Positions 47,576 to 57,651 of a DNA stretch of 64,000 bases are shown here, piece by piece. The notes beneath the pieces were generated by a model. It was not told where the DNA came from, did not search any database, and was given only the letters and a program-made list of their open reading frames with translations. Position 1 is the first letter of the stretch; every line of letters begins with the position of its first letter. Source of the stretch: Candidatus Bathyarchaeia archaeon (GTDB lineage Archaea > Thermoproteota > Bathyarchaeia > Bathyarchaeales > Bathycorpusculaceae); the NCBI GenBank assembly GCA_038727135.1, contig JAVYWL010000002.1, positions 128,001 through 192,000 on the forward strand. The letters run 5' to 3'. A program made the translations under genes and the position numbers.

Positions 47576-48351
47576 CCCCCACCCTCCAGTCTGCGTTCGT
47601 GCAGAACGATGCCTAGAAAAGTGAATATGGAGAAGAAGGCAACTATGCCGAAAGCCGCAAACAAGGGCGGGACAGAAGCAGCTGACTCTAGCCCGGCACC
47701 CCACCTGAAAAAGTCAGCGGCGAAAGTCAGCGGATTAACCAGAGCAATCCCTCTGTAGTATGGTGGCATATAAGCTGTTGGATAAAGCGTCGTGCTCAAC
47801 CTAACTATTAAGGCGTCAATGACGCCCATCAAAATGTCAAACCGGTCAGAAGACTTTATGCTAACAGCCAAGGTGATGCTGAAACCCGCAACGCCAAAAG
47901 CAAACAGAAAAAGGGATAGTAAAGCCACAAGAAGTTGGAAGGGGTTCGAAACTCCAATTAGGTATAGGATAAAAAGCATCATAGGTCCAACATATAAGAA
48001 GCTTCTTAAGCCACCTCCAATAGATCTTCCCAAAACAAGTTCTTTCCTTGAAACAGGAACGCTCAGCAAATATTCTATGACGCCGTGGTCTGCCTCTTCG
48101 TAAATGTCATAGCCTATGAAAACTGTTGTTGAATAAAGCATTGTTATAATTATCCCCGCGGCATAATAGTTGAAGTAGCTCCCTCCAACAGCGGCTTGGA
48201 CGTCAACTCGAAACATGTGGTTTACAACCAAACCAAAGAGGGCTATTTGTGAAACAAACCATATGGCGCGCATTATCAGCAGAAACTTGTAACGCAAAAA
48301 CATCTTTATGTCTCTTTCAGCAACAATCCAAACCTTTCGAAGGCTTATCAT
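47566..48351 (-). CDS. ABC-2 transporter permease
   Basis: LLSVPVSR, LYP and VNPLT motifs. Confidence 0.88.
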   Translation of the reverse strand: MISLRKVWIVAERDIKMFLRYKFLLIMRAIWFVSQIALFGLVVNHMFRVDVQAAVGGSYFNYYAAGIIITMLYSTTVFIGYDIYEEADHGVIEYLLSVPVSRKELVLGRSIGGGLRSFLYVGPMMLFILYLIGVSNPFQLLVALLSLFLFAFGVAGFSITLAVSIKSSDRFDILMGVIDALIVRLSTTLYPTAYMPPYYRGIALVNPLTFAADFFRWGAGLESAASVPPLFAAFGIVAFFSIFTFLGIVLHERRLEGGGWQ

Positions 48352-49304
48352 TCCCTCTGAGCCTCTTCAATAGTTAAGCCAGTATAATGCGCGAAAACGT
48401 CGTCCAGCGAGGGCTCACTCATACGTATAGACCTAATCTGAACCTGCGTCTTCATAAAGAACTCGGTGATTTTAGGCAAGACCTCCTCTGCTTGGTTCAA
48501 GTAGATTTTCAAGTGATTCTGTTTTATAGCCAAAACATTGACAACTCTTGGAATCTCCTTTAATCTTTCAAGAACTTTGTCCGACACATCCCTCTCCAGG
48601 GTTATCTCTACAACGTCTCCGCCGGGTATGCTGTCCTTCAACTTTTTAGGCTCATCGCAGACAAGCAGTTTGCCCTTATGCATTATCGCCACCCTGTCCG
48701 AGAGCACGTCAGCCTCATAAAGCTCATTTGTCGCCAAAAGTATCGTGGAACCCTCGTCTCTAAGGTCCCGTAGCATGTTCCATATCCTATGCTTGCCCAC
48801 AACGTCTATTTGGGCGGTCGGTTCATCAACAATGGCAATTTTAGGTCTTTGGATTAAGATTTTGGCTATTTCCACACGTTTCCGCATGCCACCGGAAAAG
48901 GCATGCACGCTCTTGAAACGGTCGTTCCAAAGCTCAAGCTCCTCAAGAGCCCACCGCACCCTCTTCCTACGCTCGTCTGGTGGTAAGCCGCAAACTTTAG
49001 CGTGCCAGTTTAGTATGTCCCAAGGCGAGTCAACCCACAAAAGCTTAGGCTCTTGAAAAGCCATCCCCACGAGAGTTCTGGCCTTATCCGGCTCTTTAGT
49101 AACGTCGTAAGGTCCGATGTACGCTGTCCCCTCAGTTGGCTTAATAACAGTTGTAAGCATGAGCAAAGTTGTCGTCTTCCCAGCCCCATTAGGTCCGAGA
49201 ATCCCAAGGATTTCGCCCTCTTCTACCTCAAGGTTTAGATGGTCAACTGCCGTGAAATTGCCAAACTTTTTTGTGAGATTCACTATGCGGATTATCGGCG
49301 CCAT
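48348..49304 (-). CDS. ABC transporter ATP-binding protein (DrrA-like)
   Basis: GPNGAGKT, FSGGM, VDEPT and EPSLDDVF motifs. Confidence 0.93.
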   Translation of the reverse strand: MAPIIRIVNLTKKFGNFTAVDHLNLEVEEGEILGILGPNGAGKTTTLLMLTTVIKPTEGTAYIGPYDVTKEPDKARTLVGMAFQEPKLLWVDSPWDILNWHAKVCGLPPDERRKRVRWALEELELWNDRFKSVHAFSGGMRKRVEIAKILIQRPKIAIVDEPTAQIDVVGKHRIWNMLRDLRDEGSTILLATNELYEADVLSDRVAIMHKGKLLVCDEPKKLKDSIPGGDVVEITLERDVSDKVLERLKEIPRVVNVLAIKQNHLKIYLNQAEEVLPKITEFFMKTQVQIRSIRMSEPSLDDVFAHYTGLTIEEAQRE

Positions 49305-49347
49305 TTCCTATTCCTTGGTGAAATAAACACAGTTTGTTGGCTGTCAC

Positions 49348-50673
49348 TTAAAGATTACGTGACAGCAACTCAAAAGCATGTCTTTCGGCTTTTTCAACAA
49401 CCGTGTGCTCATCCAACGTTTTGACAATCCTATTTTCCATCAAGATTTTGCCGTCAACTATTACCGTGTCCACGTCGCTTCCCCTTGCAGAGTATACCAT
49501 GGCGGCGTAAATGTTGTGCAGAGGCTTTAGATGAGGCTTTCCCAAATCAACCAGAATTATGTCCGCTTTTTTCCCAACTTCCAATGAACCTATAATTCTT
49601 TCAAATCCTAAAGCTTTAGCCCCATTTATGGTCGCCATCTTTAAAACTTCATAAGCGGATAAAACTTCAGGCTTCTTGTAAATGAACTTTTGGAGTAGGG
49701 CCCCAAACTTCATGGTCTCAAACATGTCAAGGGAATTATTACTTGCCGGCCCATCGGTCCCCAGCGCAGTATTAACCCCTAACTCTATGAGTTCTTTGGC
49801 TTTTGCGGCGTTTAACCCAAGCTTCATGTTGGCCACCGGCACATAAACGGCGTTTACGTTGCTCCTCGCCAACATGTGCATATCCTTCTCGGTTAAGTTA
49901 ATGCAGTGGGCCGCTAGGACATGAACGCCAAAAAATCCAAGCCTTTCCAAGAATTCAACTTCGCCACAGCCATACTTTTCCTCATATTCCTTGAATAGTT
50001 CCGCCGACTCCGCCAAGTGAATATGAACGCCAACTCCGAGTTCTCGGGCTTTATCCCTAACTTCGGCAAGCAGTTCTGGGCTGCAACTGTAAGCCGCATG
50101 AGGCCCAAGCATTGTTTTCACTCTTCCATCTACATATCCATTAAAGGACTTGGCGAAGTTGACGCTCGCGTTTAGCATCTTCTCGCCTCGTGTCTTATCT
50201 CCAGCCTCAATGATGCCTTCAGCCAAAACAGCCCTTAAACCGCTTTCAGAAACCGCCCTAGCAACTGAGTCCTCATAGAAGTACATGTCTGCAAAGCATG
50301 TGGTCCCACTTTTCAGCATTTCCAAACAGCCCAAAAGGGCCCCAACATAAACATCGTCCCGCGTCAGCTTCGCCTCCAAAGGCCAAATAGTCTCCCGAAG
50401 CCACACATCCAAGGGCTTGTCTTCGGCCAACCCCCTAAAAAGAGTCATAGCCACATGAGTATGACAGTTAATCAGTCCGGGAAGCGCAACTTTACCCTTC
50501 GCGTTTAGCTTTTTATCCGCCGATATACCAACTGTCGAATCATATTTGCCAACAAAAATTATTTCCCCATTCTTTATGGCTATGGCACCATTCTCAACAG
50601 CGTCTACGCCGCCGTCCTTCATAGGTAAAACCGTGCATCCATAAATCAAGATGTCAGCCTTCACAAGCACCAC
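49348..50673 (-). CDS. Amidohydrolase, MTA/SAH deaminase family
   Basis: NCHTH, GPHA, HIHLAE, GTDGPASNN and GKKADI motifs. Confidence 0.88.
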   Translation of the reverse strand: MVLVKADILIYGCTVLPMKDGGVDAVENGAIAIKNGEIIFVGKYDSTVGISADKKLNAKGKVALPGLINCHTHVAMTLFRGLAEDKPLDVWLRETIWPLEAKLTRDDVYVGALLGCLEMLKSGTTCFADMYFYEDSVARAVSESGLRAVLAEGIIEAGDKTRGEKMLNASVNFAKSFNGYVDGRVKTMLGPHAAYSCSPELLAEVRDKARELGVGVHIHLAESAELFKEYEEKYGCGEVEFLERLGFFGVHVLAAHCINLTEKDMHMLARSNVNAVYVPVANMKLGLNAAKAKELIELGVNTALGTDGPASNNSLDMFETMKFGALLQKFIYKKPEVLSAYEVLKMATINGAKALGFERIIGSLEVGKKADIILVDLGKPHLKPLHNIYAAMVYSARGSDVDTVIVDGKILMENRIVKTLDEHTVVEKAERHAFELLSRNL

Positions 50674-50767
50674 AAAAACTAGAAGAGTGTGTGAAAAATA
50701 AAAAGTGTGCTAGCTGGCTACTTGATTTTCCGGGCCTTCTCCCCTCCGCAAGCAAATTAGGCTAGTT

Positions 50768-51244
50768 TTAGAAGCTGAATCCGTGGTTATGCTTCTCTAC
50801 CCTCTTAACCAGAGAGTGCAAAGCCGGCTGCGCCAAATCTTCGCCTATAGCAGAGCCTTTTGGAACCCCGGTTGCGCCAATCTTCTTGCAAATGAAGTTA
50901 AGCGAATCCTCAGTGAAGTTCAGGAGGTTTTGTCCCTCAGCCGTAAGCTTGTAAACTTTTCTGGGGCGTTCGTTTGACATGTCCCACTCACTTTTGACAT
51001 AGCCGCTCTTTTCCAGGGCGTTCAAAAGTGGGTAAATTGTGCTTGGGCCGAAGTATACGCCGAAGTTTTTGCGGATTTTGGTTATTATCTGGTAGCCGTG
51101 CATGGGCTGAGAGCTTAGGAACTGAAGCACTATCAGGTCTAGGAGGCCCTTCATAAGTTTAACTTGGACCTCTTTTGAGCTGTTCACCACGGCTTTTCCC
51201 ATCCTTTTCTGTATTTTTGTTAGACACGAATACGATATGTCCAC
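50768..51244 (-). CDS. PadR family regulator
   Basis: HGYQI, STIYPLL and RKVYKLT motifs. Confidence 0.9.
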   Translation of the reverse strand: MDISYSCLTKIQKRMGKAVVNSSKEVQVKLMKGLLDLIVLQFLSSQPMHGYQIITKIRKNFGVYFGPSTIYPLLNALEKSGYVKSEWDMSNERPRKVYKLTAEGQNLLNFTEDSLNFICKKIGATGVPKGSAIGEDLAQPALHSLVKRVEKHNHGFSF

Positions 51245-51306
51245 TTTTAGACATATCTCAAGACTCTATAAAGCATAAACAAAAATATAAAGGTTCACGC
51301 TTACCG

Positions 51307-51343
51307 AAAACATAAAAAAGCATAACAAAAGCATAACAAAAGC
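51307..51343 (+). repeat. 11-bp tandem repeats (AAAGCATAACA) between the divergent PadR genes
   Basis: Copies at 51317-51327 and 51328-51338, with partial copies at 51271, 51307 and 51339. Confidence 0.6.
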
Positions 51344-51417
51344 TATTCCAAAACATGCATAATCCATATAAACCCAACAAAGATAAGTCAAAAACAGAAC
51401 ACAAAAAGGCAAACAAA

Positions 51418-51735
51418 ATGGAAGAAAACCTCAAAAAAGAAATTGTTCAACACATAACCAAAAACCTACTAGACATCCAAATAATGTGCCTAGTAAGCAA
51501 AGAACCAGCATGGGGATACAAAATAAAAAAGCAAATAGAAGCCTTCTCTGGACTAAAAATACGCCACGGAGCCCTATACCCACTACTCAAAAAACTTGAA
51601 AACAAAGGTCTAATAAAAAGCCAAAAACAACAGCAAGGAAAACGCACAAGAAAAGTATACACAATAACCGATAAAGGAAAAACATATATAAACGTATATT
51701 ATCATGTGCTGAAAGAGCAATGGGGTATTAATTAA
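51418..51735 (+). CDS. PadR family regulator (start likely ATG 51418)
   Basis: WGYKI, GALYPLL and RKVYTIT motifs. Confidence 0.88.
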   Translation: MEENLKKEIVQHITKNLLDIQIMCLVSKEPAWGYKIKKQIEAFSGLKIRHGALYPLLKKLENKGLIKSQKQQQGKRTRKVYTITDKGKTYINVYYHVLKEQWGIN

Positions 51736-51776
51736 TTTTAAGTGATTTAAAGTGACTATACTTAAAATGAAGAATT

Positions 51777-52763
51777 ATGACTCCTAAAATTGGTAAAATA
51801 GTTGTCGCTGATCTTAAAAAGCGAAGTAAGAAAGGGTTAAGGTTGGCTAAGCAAATACTTAAAGCGGAGAAAATTGGGAATCCAACACTGCGTGAGGCGC
51901 TTGAACACTATGTTGAATATTGGAGCGACTTTGTCCACCCAGGATTATTCTCAATAGCATGTGAAGCTGTCGGAGGCAGCATCGACAACCTTCGATTAGC
52001 ACAAGCATCAATAGCCATGATGGCAGCAGCATTTGACATACATGATGACATACTAGACAAGTCTAAAGTTAAATATGGAATACCTACAGTTTACGGCAAG
52101 TTTGGTGCTGAAATTGCGCTTCTCCTAGGCGATGCACTATTAATAGAGAGTTTCAAACTTTTTATTGATTCAACAAGAATGTTGCCAAAGAAAACAATTA
52201 GGAGCGCGCTTAGCACAATTAAAAAATTAACTTTCGAGGTTGGCAACGCGCATGTTTTTGAGGTTGTCATAAAAAAAGGGAGGGAGGTTACACCGGATAA
52301 TTATATGCAGGTCATTAAGATGAAAGCGGCTGGAATTGAGTTGGACATGCACCTCGGTGCACTTTTGGGTGGAGGAACTACAAAAGATGTTAAAGTTTTG
52401 GCAAAATTGGGTAGAATAATTGGGATTTTGGGCATGCTTCGTGAAGAATTTATCGATATTTTTGAAGTAGAAGAGCTTTCTCAACGAATCGCTGTCCAGG
52501 ATTTACCATTACCTATAATATTTGCAATGCGCGATCATAAAGCAAAAATAAAGCTATCAAGCATTATTTCAAAGCCTAAAATAACGAACGAAGATGTTGA
52601 TGAACTATTAGACATAGTTTTCGAATCTGATAAAATTGTCAACTTAAAAAGAAAAATGCAATGCCTACAGAGGCAAGGATTGGAGCTTATTAAAGTAATC
52701 CACAATAATGAACCTAAAAATAAATTAGAGTCTATTTTACTTTTTATGCTTGAGGACTTGTAG
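51777..52763 (+). CDS. Divergent polyprenyl synthetase-fold protein
   Basis: First Asp-rich motif DIHDDILD, LLGDALL and KMKA; second motif degenerate (REEFID). Confidence 0.8.
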   Translation: MTPKIGKIVVADLKKRSKKGLRLAKQILKAEKIGNPTLREALEHYVEYWSDFVHPGLFSIACEAVGGSIDNLRLAQASIAMMAAAFDIHDDILDKSKVKYGIPTVYGKFGAEIALLLGDALLIESFKLFIDSTRMLPKKTIRSALSTIKKLTFEVGNAHVFEVVIKKGREVTPDNYMQVIKMKAAGIELDMHLGALLGGGTTKDVKVLAKLGRIIGILGMLREEFIDIFEVEELSQRIAVQDLPLPIIFAMRDHKAKIKLSSIISKPKITNEDVDELLDIVFESDKIVNLKRKMQCLQRQGLELIKVIHNNEPKNKLESILLFMLEDL

Positions 52764-52774
52764 TAGTAACTAAA

Positions 52775-52834
52775 TTACATACCAGCTCTAATCGGAATTT
52801 CTCTCTTTTTAGCTCTTTTTATTGCGCCTTTCAC
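52775..52834 (-). CDS. Putative 19-aa peptide MKGAIKRAKKREIPIRAGM
   Basis: GTG...TAA ORF located downstream of a leftward BRE/TATA at 52871-52882. Confidence 0.4.
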   Translation of the reverse strand: MKGAIKRAKKREIPIRAGM

Positions 52835-52870
52835 CCTTCATCCCTGTATTAGTGTACAACAAATCTACTA

Positions 52871-52898
52871 ATAAAACTTTCTGCGAAGAAAGTTTTAT
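52871..52898. promoter_or_regulatory. Perfect 12-bp inverted repeat forming back-to-back BRE/TATA promoters
   Basis: ATAAAACTTTCT-GCGA-AGAAAGTTTTAT. Confidence 0.7.
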
Positions 52899-52931
52899 CT
52901 TGTAGGGCTACTATTAGCGAGCTAGAAAAAG

Positions 52932-54164
52932 ATGACCATCACAAAATTGTCTAAAAAGAAAAACGCATTAACAAGATCTTCTTCGTCAGTCTTCTTGGTA
53001 ATCAATAGTTTTGTGTGGTTCACATTAACTCATGCTGCTTTTAACACAGCAGTAAATGAGGCAATTTTGTCTGAAAACGAAAAACTAAGCTTATTTACTT
53101 TCTACTATGTAGGTATTGCAGTTTCAGCAGTGGTAGGTTCAAAATTTTTCCCTCAAAAACGGGTTAAATACCTTAAATTATGGCCTTTTATTGGGGGTAT
53201 TGCCACACTTTTAATGTCTGCTTTTTTTGTTAATAACCTAGCAGTTAACATATTACTTGCCTTTTTCCTCGGTATTTCTATTGGAGTAGGGTTTCCTTCT
53301 TGCATGGGAAATTTTGCTGATTCAACATTCATCGAGGAACGAGGTTTTATAGGCGGAGTGGTATGGAGCGCCGTAGGATTCTTTGTATTACTTTTTGCCA
53401 TTTTAATAAGTATGTTTGGGCGATTGGAAATGATCATTATGTTAGCGCTGTGGCGATTCCTCGGAGGCGCTGGTTTTCTATTTATGCAACAAAAATGTGA
53501 GACATTTCACACTCGGAAATCTCTCAGTTACGCAGAGATCCTTCATAAAAAAGATACATTGCTATATTTATTTCCATGGATTCTGTTTTGTATTATAAAC
53601 TGGGCAGAAATACCGATAATAGAAAAAGCCTTTACAGCTGTAGGAATAGATTTTTCATTCGTTTTACTTGTGGAATTTGCGCTTATAGGTGTCTTTGCGC
53701 TACTGGGAGGGATTATTGCAGACGCTATAGGTAGAAAACGCGTAGTTATTGCCGGATTCATAATGTTGGGCATAGAATATGCTGCAATGAGTATATCTTT
53801 CAACTCTCCCATAACTTTATATCTATTTTTAACTTTTGACGGCTCAACATGGGGATTGTTTTTTTCAGTTTTCTTTATGACTCTTTGGGGAGATCTTGGC
53901 GAAAATTATGAAAAAGAAAAATACTACATTTTAGGCGGTCTTCCATACCTTCTTGCAGGTTTCGTGTCAGTTTTAATTGAACCCTACGTTCGCGTCATTT
54001 CTTCAGCGGCGGCATTTTCTTTTGCAAGTTTTTTCTTGTTCTTGGCTGTTGTTCCTTTAATGTTTGCTCCCGAGACTTTGCCTGAAAAAGCGCTCAAGGA
54101 GAGGGAGCTTCGGAGTTATATTGAGAAGGCTAAGCGGGTTAGGGAAAAGTTTACGAAGAGCTGA
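52932..54164 (+). CDS. MFS-fold membrane protein
   Basis: About 12 TM helices; GIIADAIGRK and APETLP motifs. Confidence 0.82.
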   Translation: MTITKLSKKKNALTRSSSSVFLVINSFVWFTLTHAAFNTAVNEAILSENEKLSLFTFYYVGIAVSAVVGSKFFPQKRVKYLKLWPFIGGIATLLMSAFFVNNLAVNILLAFFLGISIGVGFPSCMGNFADSTFIEERGFIGGVVWSAVGFFVLLFAILISMFGRLEMIIMLALWRFLGGAGFLFMQQKCETFHTRKSLSYAEILHKKDTLLYLFPWILFCIINWAEIPIIEKAFTAVGIDFSFVLLVEFALIGVFALLGGIIADAIGRKRVVIAGFIMLGIEYAAMSISFNSPITLYLFLTFDGSTWGLFFSVFFMTLWGDLGENYEKEKYYILGGLPYLLAGFVSVLIEPYVRVISSAAAFSFASFFLFLAVVPLMFAPETLPEKALKERELRSYIEKAKRVREKFTKS

Positions 54165-54176
54165 TTAGCTTTTGCT

Positions 54177-55313
54177 TTGCTGGTGGGCTGTGTGTTCTTT
54201 CATGTTATGTTGACGACTGAGTGTGACTTGGAGTGTCGTTATTGTTTTGGTGAAGCCTTAGAGGATTTTTGCGGCGGTTTTGGCGGTTTTGATGTTGATT
54301 ATTCTTTGCCTAAGCGTTTAGGCTATGATGTTAGCTTGCTAGAGCGTTTTTGTGGGCTTGATTCTGATTGTGTTTTGATTTTTTATGGTGGTGAGCCTCT
54401 TTTATGCTTGGATGATGTTAAGCGTATAATGGATAGCGTTAATGCGAGGCGTTTTGCTGTTCAGACGAATGGTTTACATTTGAGCTGTTTAGAACCAGCC
54501 TATGTTAATCGTTTTAGTGTTATTTTGGTGTCTGTCGATGGGGATGAGGCCCTAACCGATTATTATCGTGGTGGGGGCGTTTACCGTCGGGTTGTGGAGA
54601 ATTTGAGGCAGATTAAGCGTAATGGCTTTAATGGTGAGGTTATTGCTCGGATGACTGTTATGGAGGAAACTGACATCTATGGGCAGGTTTTGTGGCTTCT
54701 AGGCAATGATGATTTTGCCTTTTCTTCTGTTCATTGGCAGCTTAACGCTGGTTTTTGGAACGATTTTGAGAGGCGGAATTTCAAAGAATGGGTTGAGAGA
54801 AGTTATAATCCTGGAATTCGCCGCCTCGTGAAGTTTTGGGTTGACCAGATGGAGAAGCACGGCGTTGTTTTGAGGCTTTACCCGTTTTTGGGCGTGGCGC
54901 AGTCTCTTTTGCTTGGTGAGGAAAAGTCGCCTTTAAGATGTGGCGCTGGTTGGATTAATTATGCTATTCAGACGGATGGGCATATTGTGCCTTGTCCAAG
55001 CATGTGGGGCATGCGGGACTTCTATGTTGGGCACATTAGCACTGCGCATCCATTGAGGCTTAGGAAGGTTTTTGTGGGCGAGCCTTGCACAAGCTGTGGA
55101 ATTTTCGGCGTTTGTGGCGGCAGATGCCTATACGCCAACCTCACGAGGCGCTGGAGTCCAGAAGCCTATAGGCTTGTCTGCAAAACCGTTGAGAACATGA
55201 TTAATGCCATAATGGATGAGTTGCCGAGAATTAGGGAGCTTATTAGAACTGGCAGGATAAGGGTTGAGGATTTCAACTTTTTAAAGTATGTTGGTTGTGA
55301 AATAATTCCGTAG
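54177..55313 (+). CDS. Radical SAM/SPASM protein, AF0577 (TIGR04084)-like
   Basis: CDLECRYC, YGGEPL, CGAG...PCP, CTSC...CGGRC and terminal GCEIIP. Confidence 0.85.
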   Translation: MLVGCVFFHVMLTTECDLECRYCFGEALEDFCGGFGGFDVDYSLPKRLGYDVSLLERFCGLDSDCVLIFYGGEPLLCLDDVKRIMDSVNARRFAVQTNGLHLSCLEPAYVNRFSVILVSVDGDEALTDYYRGGGVYRRVVENLRQIKRNGFNGEVIARMTVMEETDIYGQVLWLLGNDDFAFSSVHWQLNAGFWNDFERRNFKEWVERSYNPGIRRLVKFWVDQMEKHGVVLRLYPFLGVAQSLLLGEEKSPLRCGAGWINYAIQTDGHIVPCPSMWGMRDFYVGHISTAHPLRLRKVFVGEPCTSCGIFGVCGGRCLYANLTRRWSPEAYRLVCKTVENMINAIMDELPRIRELIRTGRIRVEDFNFLKYVGCEIIP

Positions 55314-56989: not shown

Positions 56990-57232
56990 ATGGCAGAAAT
57001 CGTCGTAAAAGAAATCGACTCTCAAGGGAGAGTGTCAATTCCAGCACGCTGGCGGAAGAATTTTAAATCTCGTAAACTTGCGTTGATAAAACGGGGAAAT
57101 AGAATAGAAATAGTTTCTGTGGAAGCACTTTCACCTTCCGCATTGTTCGACTCAATAAGAGTTTCTGAAAATGTGGATTTTACTGATTCCCATGCTCTTA
57201 AGAAGGCTTTGTCGGAGCTTAATGAACGTTGA
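56990..57232 (+). CDS. AbrB/MazE-type antitoxin
   Basis: IDSQGRVSIPARWR; overlaps the PIN gene. Confidence 0.88.
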   Translation: MAEIVVKEIDSQGRVSIPARWRKNFKSRKLALIKRGNRIEIVSVEALSPSALFDSIRVSENVDFTDSHALKKALSELNER

Positions 57233-57651
57233 AGTTTGTAGATTCAAACATTTTTCTTCACGCTTACCTGGTCCCCCGTAGAACTTTAACAAAAGATGAG
57301 CAGAGAGTTAAGGACGAAGCCAAAGCTATTGTGAGGAGGATAGAAGAGGGCGAAGAGGTCGCCATCACAGTTGTTCACCTTTCAGAAGTTGTAAATGTAG
57401 TGGAGGCGGGACTTGGCATTAAGGAATCTTTGGGCTTTTTGGCATGGGTTGTGACAAGCGAAAATGTGAAGGTGTACTCGGTTGGCGCAAAAGACTATGA
57501 GGCAGCGTTACTATTGGCGAAAGAAAAAGAGATAGGTGCCAATGATGCTTTGGCTTATTTATTCATGAAGGCTCATGGGATAAGCGAAATTTACACCTTC
57601 GACAAACACTTTAAAAAATTAGGGGACATAACAAAACTGCCAGAAATGTAG
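57229..57651 (+). CDS. vapC: VapC PIN-domain toxin
   Basis: FVDSNIF, HLSEV, NDAL and IYTFDKHF motifs. Confidence 0.9.
   Translation: MKFVDSNIFLHAYLVPRRTLTKDEQRVKDEAKAIVRRIEEGEEVAITVVHLSEVVNVVEAGLGIKESLGFLAWVVTSENVKVYSVGAKDYEAALLLAKEKEIGANDALAYLFMKAHGISEIYTFDKHFKKLGDITKLPEM

Follow-up and report, generated by a model that had tools for sequence, protein, structure and literature searches.

A predicted PadR-controlled gene cassette of Bathyarchaeia joins a candidate non-elongating prenyltransferase and a putative exporter to a family of cationic micro-proteins

ComQ of Bacillus, an enzyme with the isoprenyl diphosphate synthase (IDS) fold that prenylates the ComX peptide, is, together with PalQ and StheQ, among the closest described counterparts of the archaeal locus presented here. 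PalQ is specific for a C-terminal Trp, and StheQ acts on a Trp second from the C-terminus. According to a 2026 review, all characterised trans-IDS-like peptide prenyltransferases target Trp; the first Asp-rich motif (FARM) handles the allylic donor, the second (SARM) positions isopentenyl diphosphate (IPP), and a Gln immediately upstream of the (pseudo-)SARM is the Trp-recognition determinant of ComQ-type enzymes. A 2014 census found comQXPA-like loci in Firmicutes only, some of them with a putative comX on the opposite strand, and peptide prenylation by IDS-fold enzymes is reported from Firmicutes and, by a 2026 preprint, from one Chloroflexi species only. Neither an archaeal system of this kind nor a Bathyarchaeia paper on the genes discussed below surfaced in the open-access library of papers searched. 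Peptide-based communication is, to our knowledge, essentially undescribed in Archaea. The locus occupies positions 50768-55313 of the window, i.e., the whole 64,000-nt stretch of contig JAVYWL010000002.1 (positions 128,001 to 192,000) that was analysed, in a 1.55-Mb Bathyarchaeia genome (GCA_038727135.1); all coordinates refer to this window. It contains a gene for an IDS-fold enzyme (IDSL), a convergent micro-open reading frame (micro-ORF), a major facilitator superfamily (MFS) transporter gene, two PadR-family regulator genes and a radical S-adenosylmethionine (rSAM)/SPASM gene. The reading that we favour, with a probability of roughly 40%, is that PadR regulators control a cassette for the production, prenylation and export of a short cationic peptide, similar in its logic to ComQ/ComX but separately evolved, out of an archaeal geranylgeranyl diphosphate (GGPP) synthase.

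The micro-ORF (52834..52775, minus strand) is convergent to IDSL (51777-52763, plus strand) and is separated from the IDSL stop by 12 nt. It starts with GTG and encodes 19 aa with a basic N-terminus, a P-I-R motif and a 3-residue tail. A convergent basic ORF of this length with its own promoter had been listed in the initial annotation of the locus; it is indeed present, with TATA-like and Shine–Dalgarno (SD)-like elements upstream and with conservation across the family. Homologous loci were gathered from related genomes (20 loci), from genome contigs of 185,579 species (44 loci, L053-L096) and from metagenomes (80 loci). Entries from L097 onward were ordinary bacterial IDS and were dropped, and the duplicates L053, L086 and L088 were removed before counting. 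The strict pattern, defined on the first 21 loci, was an ORF of 9-30 aa with at least two Lys/Arg followed by P-x-R within the final 11 residues, and the region searched was the convergent strand up to 120 nt from the IDSL stop. The related genomes are not independent of one another, so the locus counts are descriptive and are not p-values. The strict pattern was present in 35 of 58 non-duplicate genome loci, and on the strand of IDSL itself in none of the 58. The background was about 2%, with 118/5800 for random windows, 75/5800 for shuffles and 2/151 for 3′ flanks of other genes. Outside the defining set the pattern was found in 22 of 37 loci, and among the independent metagenome loci with enough flank in 73 of 77; the short ORFs that the initial annotation had proposed to look for beside homologues of the enzyme are therefore there in both collections. 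Several loci without a strict match have a less stringent form of the ORF, in which Arg gives way to Lys, Gln, Ser or Thr or a canonical start codon is missing; no variant of the micro-ORF was found in L035.

In the micro-ORFs all four codons for Pro and all six for Arg occur, and the pairwise variation at codon positions 1, 2 and 3 is 0.35, 0.31 and 0.585, respectively. Single-base codon changes between close pairs (n = 781) comprise 492 synonymous and 289 non-synonymous ones, that is, 63% synonymous against 23.8% expected. An SD-like site lies upstream of 96 of 103 micro-ORFs (15% of random positions), a TATA-like box upstream of 67 (9%) and a TGT-N3-4-ACA core at −50..−8 of 95 (2.6%). A chance ORF was rejected on the strict-pattern controls, the codon use and the synonymous excess. 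Purifying selection maintains the micro-ORF as a protein-coding gene with a promoter of its own, and it acts on the peptide rather than on the DNA. A Pfam search with six 20-aa peptides (E up to 10) returned no families. What began as one 19-aa ORF is now a family of 94 or more distinct micro-proteins whose genomic partner is constant; gene callers would pass over an ORF this small, and this one is an example of the hidden coding capacity of uncultured archaea.

Each of the 94 distinct peptides, with precursors of 12-23 aa, is composed of a conserved polybasic leader, the motif [V/I]-P-[V/I]-R and a hypervariable tail, which is 3 residues long in 42 peptides, 4 in 31 and 5-8 in 21. Trp occurs in 31 of the 94, and 54 have an aromatic residue. 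In the genome set, 27 of 35 peptides have Trp after P-x-R, and in most lineages outside the clade of the window it is at or near the C-terminus. Members of that clade seldom have Trp; their tails are short and hydrophobic, often of the form x-aromatic-Pro-x. The window's own 3-residue tail has neither Trp nor Cys, just as the initial annotation had cautioned; in the family, Cys is confined to two tails. The peptides may also resemble polybasic-plus-CaaX tails and ribosomal protein L39e.

In 44 of 52 loci IDSL is immediately followed, in the same orientation, by the MFS gene (52932-54164, plus strand, in the window), and in 50 of 52 an MFS gene is found anywhere in the locus. The Pfam score of the encoded protein is 24.7 bits in the window; ten of eleven orthologues scanned reach 39.5-72.9 bits (cut-off 33.4) and one 20.6, and an Atlas model of the protein matches MFS transporters with a template modelling score (TM) of about 0.8, in agreement with its earlier description as an MFS-fold protein. 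It is a candidate exporter or flippase. In four of five related genomes without IDSL, an MFS orthologue was not found with this query. PadR_B is upstream of IDSL in 19 of 53 loci with enough flank. An enrichment-cultured organism, Ca. Bathyarchaeum tardum (L088), also carries the cassette. In a further locus (L133, G094:C146:12029-16216) the MFS and rSAM genes are kept and no IDSL was found; the region upstream of MFS looks like a decayed remnant.

Some loci are rearranged. In L044, L046 and L049 the MFS gene is divergent or absent, and the micro-ORF precedes IDSL in the same orientation. L048, L085 and L087 have a trypsin-family protease gene that faces IDSL, and after it come the micro-ORF and then MFS. 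The micro-ORF remains beside IDSL through these rearrangements; the IDSL–peptide adjacency is the most stable link in the cassette, and micro-ORF, IDSL and MFS are a co-inherited, co-regulated unit. Genes for a trypsin-like serine protease (PF00089, 44-55 bits) occur beside IDSL in 6 of 144 loci (L085:3025-3924, L087:3015-3977, L048:4043-4912, L079, L092 and L094) and are absent from the window's genome. The match in L092 is split into two pieces, and this gene may be broken. In loci with IDSL less than 45% identical to that of the window, the median identities are 35% for IDSL, 34% for MFS, 49% for PadR_B, 62% for the neighbouring amidohydrolase, 62% for rSAM and 66% for PadR_A. Given medians of about 35% against 62-66%, IDSL, MFS and the peptide tail diverge together, approximately twice as far as the flanks. 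Such joint divergence resembles the polymorphic comQXP region.

Judging by the sequence of the spacer, the micro-ORF and MFS are divergently transcribed from one promoter region, the operator of which recurs at the PadR promoter. The IDSL/MFS spacer contains a perfect 12-bp inverted repeat (52871-52898; repeat scan; like the palindromes below, it has no strand). Each of its arms is purine-rich and then runs outward into TTTTAT, about 40 nt from each start codon, from which we infer two back-to-back transcription factor B recognition element (BRE)/TATA elements forming a bidirectional core promoter for the micro-ORF and MFS. An operator copy (52846-52868; regex match 52861..52846, minus strand) is located between the TATA box and the start codon of the micro-ORF. 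Its motif is that of palindrome O1 (51211-51233, GTATT-N2-TGT-N4-ACA-N2-AATAC), both half-sites of which match TGT-N3-4-ACA-N2-5-WTAC. The density of the full operator motif is 4.54/kb in IDSL-MFS spacers, 1.56/kb in PadR_A/PadR_B spacers and 0.05/kb elsewhere. O1 is the sole paired occurrence in the 1.55-Mb genome, the window's micro-ORF is the sole such ORF in it with an operator upstream, and no further operator-plus-peptide units were found there; the regulon appears to be limited to this cassette alone. The Rfam search of the spacer yielded nothing but a miRNA match below threshold on the inverted repeat (25.9 bits versus a 90-bit threshold), a chance hit, and a scan for bacterial promoters and terminators showed no excess over shuffles, the models being bacterial and not applicable to archaea.

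The two regulator genes are divergent and accompanied by 11-bp repeats, as initially described. PadR_A (50768-51244, minus strand; PF03551, 70 bits) has homologues 55-76% identical in 23 other loci. PadR_B (51355-51735, plus strand; PF03551, 76 bits), with homologues of 108-115 aa, is directly 5′ of IDSL and co-directional with it, and its leader harbors two exact tandem copies of an 11-bp direct repeat (51316-51337, plus strand; repeat scan), in the place of which other loci have a repeated GCATA-type motif. A second palindrome, O2 (51234-51257; 8-bp arms, 8-nt spacer), which we take to be a PadR box of the ATGT...ACAT type, is kept at the same place in other PadR_A/PadR_B spacers. O1 and O2 overlap the first 14 codons of the longest PadR_A ORF; the true start of PadR_A is probably the ATG at 51202, and PadR_B may start at the ATG at 51418. 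The locus thus holds a PadR helix-turn-helix regulator, a transporter and a predicted operator common to both, the make-up of a PadR-regulated transporter module. The 41-nt gap between PadR_B and IDSL is occupied by a 12-nt inverted repeat (51732-51771; 92% complementary, 16 nt apart), which might serve as an attenuator or as an internal promoter element. At the PadR_A end of the cassette, a DrrA-like ATP-binding cassette (ABC) ATPase, an amidohydrolase resembling methylthioadenosine/S-adenosylhomocysteine deaminases and PadR_A form a conserved block (48348-50673 in the window, and in loci L036, L040, L050, L058 and L081), and PadR_A may also regulate the ATPase and the amidohydrolase.

The IDSL protein is a member of PF00348 (82 bits, cut-off 27 bits) with an all-alpha IDS fold. 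Its AF2 model (predicted local distance difference test, pLDDT, of 93) has P. horikoshii GGPP synthase (1wy0) as the top structural match, with a TM of 0.84; Ord1 is among the matches with a TM of 0.67-0.70, and the fold search was unable to separate GGPP synthases from Ord1-type transferases. The protein aligns over its full length with archaeal GGPP synthases. It scores 110 bits with NF040698 (IdsA), the equivalog cut-off of which is 468; all 15 of its NCBIfam matches are IDS models, and no ComQ model is among them, ComQ being the family of InterPro entry IPR033965.

The FARM of IDSL is DDILD (residues 90-94; HDDILD in the alignment) and is invariant in 23/23 family members, the full set of invariant residues being D90, D91, D94, S96, K99, T104, E162, D227 and R237. 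The GGKRWRP motif of the genome's own canonical IDS aligns with WSDFVHP in IDSL, and FRRGKP aligns with VKYGIP, RRG being replaced by K-Y-G. In structures of farnesyl diphosphate synthases, the basic residues of GGKRxR and RRG hold IPP. The region corresponding to FQxxDDxxD reads M-L-R-E-E-F-I-D in the window; in the family, Met, Leu or Ile takes the FQ position, and just before the second motif most members have Arg (R222 in the window), while Lys or Gly also occurs. The second motif is [D/E/N][D/E]xxD family-wide, with an invariant final Asp and a genuine DDxxD in many members, and, on this alignment, it is modified rather than lost. Hence, the initial annotation was right that the enzyme keeps the first DDxxD and lacks RRG, and overstated the loss of the second DDxxD, which is EEFID in the window.

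Since the IPP-binding residues are gone and the Asp-rich Mg/diphosphate sites are kept, IDSL cannot be an ordinary chain-elongating synthase; we conclude from its motifs that it would still bind prenyl diphosphate and Mg2+ without chain elongation, and regard it as a candidate non-elongating prenyltransferase. A canonical IDS with all of these motifs is encoded elsewhere in the genome, beside IDI-2. The initial annotation had allowed for IDSL being a normal GGPP synthase or a subunit of one. With the IPP-site residues missing and the canonical IDS present, IDSL was rejected both as GGPP synthase of this genome and as catalytic subunit in a heteromeric enzyme for chain elongation. In some loci, two tandem IDS-like paralogues with 31-39% identity to the window's enzyme precede the micro-ORF and MFS (L036:5964-8037, L037:5979-8052 and L060:3980-6253). 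They may form a heterodimer; no second micro-ORF is evident between the copies of L060.

According to the favoured reading, the canonical GGPP synthase would supply an allylic prenyl diphosphate to IDSL, which would move the prenyl group onto the peptide, the acceptor being Trp where it is present and another one in the window's clade. The conserved basic leader would be cut after P-x-R, a step that the trypsin-like protease of six loci could perform. The MFS protein would then export or flip the product, and the PadR pair would sense this product or a related hydrophobic ligand. When the IDSL of L083 was co-folded with its peptide, taken as a 35-aa read-through form, the score was 0.40 versus 0.03 for the best control, which lends weak support; the runs showed at least 84% contact agreement and a partner pLDDT of at least 44. 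Of the solved complexes, 116 of 157 passed the mark applied, and of the mismatches, 2 of 215; scores of 0.60 or below account for just 18 of the 157 and for both passing mismatches. The ComQX-like or ribosomally synthesised and post-translationally modified peptide (RiPP) system that the initial annotation had proposed is partly borne out, in that enzyme, peptide and MFS form a unit and Trp is found in most other lineages; its other half, a RiPP made by the SPASM enzyme, is unsupported, because rSAM is not an obligatory member of the cassette.

A number of observations weigh against the favoured reading. Trp is missing from the window's own peptide and from most of its clade. The Gln that ComQ-type enzymes and Ord1 conserve next to the second motif is absent from the IDSL family alignment, on account of which IDSL is not filed in the ComQ-type family, and by sequence the enzyme is closer to GGPP synthases (1wy0, 65 bits) than to Ord1 (39 bits). 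The second motif, still acidic, would also fit an activity of terpene-synthase type, or another one that ionises diphosphates, on a substrate other than a peptide. The peptide gene is convergent to IDSL and co-regulated with MFS, and its partner could accordingly be the transporter. Among the locus neighbours (two PadR, MFS, rSAM, amidohydrolase, ABC ATPase and SfsA), neither a ComP histidine kinase nor a ComA response regulator was found. The co-folding pass is weak, and the peptide used for it is N-terminally over-extended. In 3-5% subsamples of three metatranscriptome runs from the same study there were 0, 0 and 10 reads, all ten on PadR_A and none on the peptide. These hot-spring reads fall in 50700-51327 (three at ≥99% identity and seven at 95-99%), with the rest of the cassette uncovered; their confinement to PadR_A is compatible with a repressed cassette, at a depth far too low to say.

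A more specific form of the favoured reading, which we consider unlikely, is an independently evolved archaeal system of peptide signalling or recognition. A precursor of 12-23 aa with a polybasic leader and a hypervariable tail of 3-8 residues would be prenylated by a GGPP-synthase-derived transferase not restricted to Trp, cut after P-x-R, exported by MFS and sensed by PadR. The joint fast divergence of enzyme, exporter and tail would then represent pherotype-like diversification. If this is true, Archaea would gain a first example of a peptide-pheromone system and IDS-fold prenyltransferases a new acceptor chemistry; a new acceptor in the Trp-less clade would also widen the chemistry of peptide lipidation.

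A possible, if somewhat unlikely, alternative is the PadR-regulated efflux of a non-peptide isoprenoid. IDSL would make a terpene or prenylate a small molecule, MFS would export it and PadR would sense it, and the micro-protein, rather than being a substrate, would assist or regulate the transporter or PadR. Pairs of PadR and MFS efflux genes are common, and the promoter and operator of the peptide gene are shared with MFS and not with IDSL. The acidic second motif is kept, as diphosphate ionisation needs, the Trp-recognition Gln is absent, and the window's peptide has no obvious nucleophile. However, this alternative leaves unexplained why the peptide stays beside IDSL when MFS is absent or relocated, the combination of a conserved leader with a hypervariable tail, the near-C-terminal Trp of most other lineages and the trypsin-like protease genes. 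Moreover, known small partners of transporters are membrane helices, whereas this peptide is polar and basic.

It is distinctly unlikely that the product is an unmodified cationic peptide, antimicrobial or signalling, which MFS exports or against which it protects the producer, IDSL being linked to it by operon history only. Basic peptides rich in Arg and Trp are membrane-active, the hypervariable tails and the fast divergence of IDSL and MFS relative to the flanks are typical of conflict or recognition loci, and the promoter is common to the peptide and the MFS gene. On the other hand, a link by history alone sits poorly with the IDSL–peptide adjacency being the most stable one in the cassette and with IDSL diverging in step with MFS and the peptide, not with the flanks. 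In addition, many tails of the window's clade have only three residues and no Trp.

Very unlikely, too, is a role of the micro-ORF as a cis-regulatory device, either a ribosome-arrest or leader peptide or a transcript antisense to the 3′ end of IDSL. Between the ends of the ORF and of IDSL, which run towards each other, there are 12 nt in the window; in some loci the two overlap, by as much as 26 nt. The C-terminal residues of the peptides of the window and of L034 may resemble a SecM-type arrest motif. Yet there is no downstream gene on the peptide strand to control, and an arrest motif would call for the reverse of a hypervariable C-terminal tail. The antisense overlap is not conserved, because the ORF is relocated upstream of IDSL on the same strand in L044, L046 and L049 and upstream of MFS in L048, L085 and L087.

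The rSAM/SPASM gene (54177-55313, plus strand; TIGR04084, 308 bits) starts 12 nt after the MFS stop, as the initial annotation had recorded, and is probably co-transcribed with MFS in the window. The difference in its composition, noted at the same time, is real: the GC-content is 0.32-0.39 over 51250-53750, which covers PadR_B, IDSL and MFS, and 0.43-0.50 in the flanks (0.43-0.49 over 54250-55250). The gene adjoins the cassette in 28 of 45 loci. It is single-copy in 68 of 151 Bathyarchaeia genomes and is also found in Sulfolobus acidocaldarius. Of the 23 genomes with IDSL (E ≤ 1e-40), 12 have rSAM adjacent, 8 have it elsewhere and 3 lack it (G077, G136 and G124), while 48 of 128 genomes without IDSL contain it. 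As it is widespread without IDSL and is missing from some IDSL genomes and not adjacent in others, rSAM was rejected as an obligatory cassette member; it is a conserved neighbour and not a defining part, in line with the earlier caution that it may be unrelated. The identity of this AF0577-type protein is about 60-75% among the loci compared, a conservation that suggests housekeeping rather than RiPP maturation. Neither TIGR04084 nor AF0577 was mentioned in the papers listed by a literature search that an ill-chosen further term had swamped. That the peptide is the substrate of this enzyme and becomes a cross-linked RiPP is highly improbable: the gene is a near neighbour and SPASM enzymes often cross-link Trp, Lys or Arg, but besides the distribution just given, rSAM keeps about 62% identity in loci in which the cassette is down to about 35%, and the peptides lack Cys except in two tails.

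Further downstream, at 56990-57651, two overlapping small ORFs of 80 and 140 aa look, by eye, like a VapBC-like pair of an AbrB/SpoVT-type antitoxin and a PIN-domain toxin.

In comparison with known systems, IDSL and its peptide share several features with ComQ/ComX, PalQ/PalX and StheQ/StheX. By its sequence, IDSL has the all-alpha IDS fold, keeps the FARM and appears to have abandoned IPP chemistry. A small peptide gene abuts the enzyme gene, and in some unusual Bacillus com-like loci it is likewise on the opposite strand. As in ComX-type peptides, a conserved N-terminal part is joined to a variable C-terminal part, and in most lineages outside the window's clade Trp is at the C-terminus or a few residues from it. 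In contrast to the ComQ types, the host of IDSL is archaeal, and the enzyme derives by sequence from archaeal GGPP synthase and not from the ComQ family; it has no Gln before the second motif, and this motif is still acidic. The Bathyarchaeia precursors comprise 12-23 aa against more than 50 aa in ComX-type precursors, Trp is absent in the window's clade, and the micro-ORF is convergent with its own promoter. An MFS exporter and PadR regulators take the place of ComP/ComA of ComQXPA.

Ord1, an indole (free-tryptophan) farnesyltransferase with the IDS fold (PDB 9v4g/9v4h/9v4i), is similar to IDSL in fold and possibly in non-elongating transfer from a FARM-bound donor. The sequence match, however, is weak at 39 bits, and Ord1 has a conserved Gln/Asn network and acts on the free amino acid. 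The archaeal short-chain trans-IDS/GGPP synthases (NF040698, 1wy0) give the best match to IDSL in both sequence and structure and have a FARM of the same type, but IDSL is far under the equivalog cut-off, and its GGKRxR, RRG and FQ are replaced. With regard to regulation, the LmrR-LmrCD and LadR-MdrL types are PadR-regulated efflux modules. In these, as in the window, PadR adjoins a transporter, and palindromic operators are situated at the regulator and transporter promoters; compared with such modules, the cassette of the window adds a second PadR paralogue, an IDS-like enzyme and a conserved micro-ORF.

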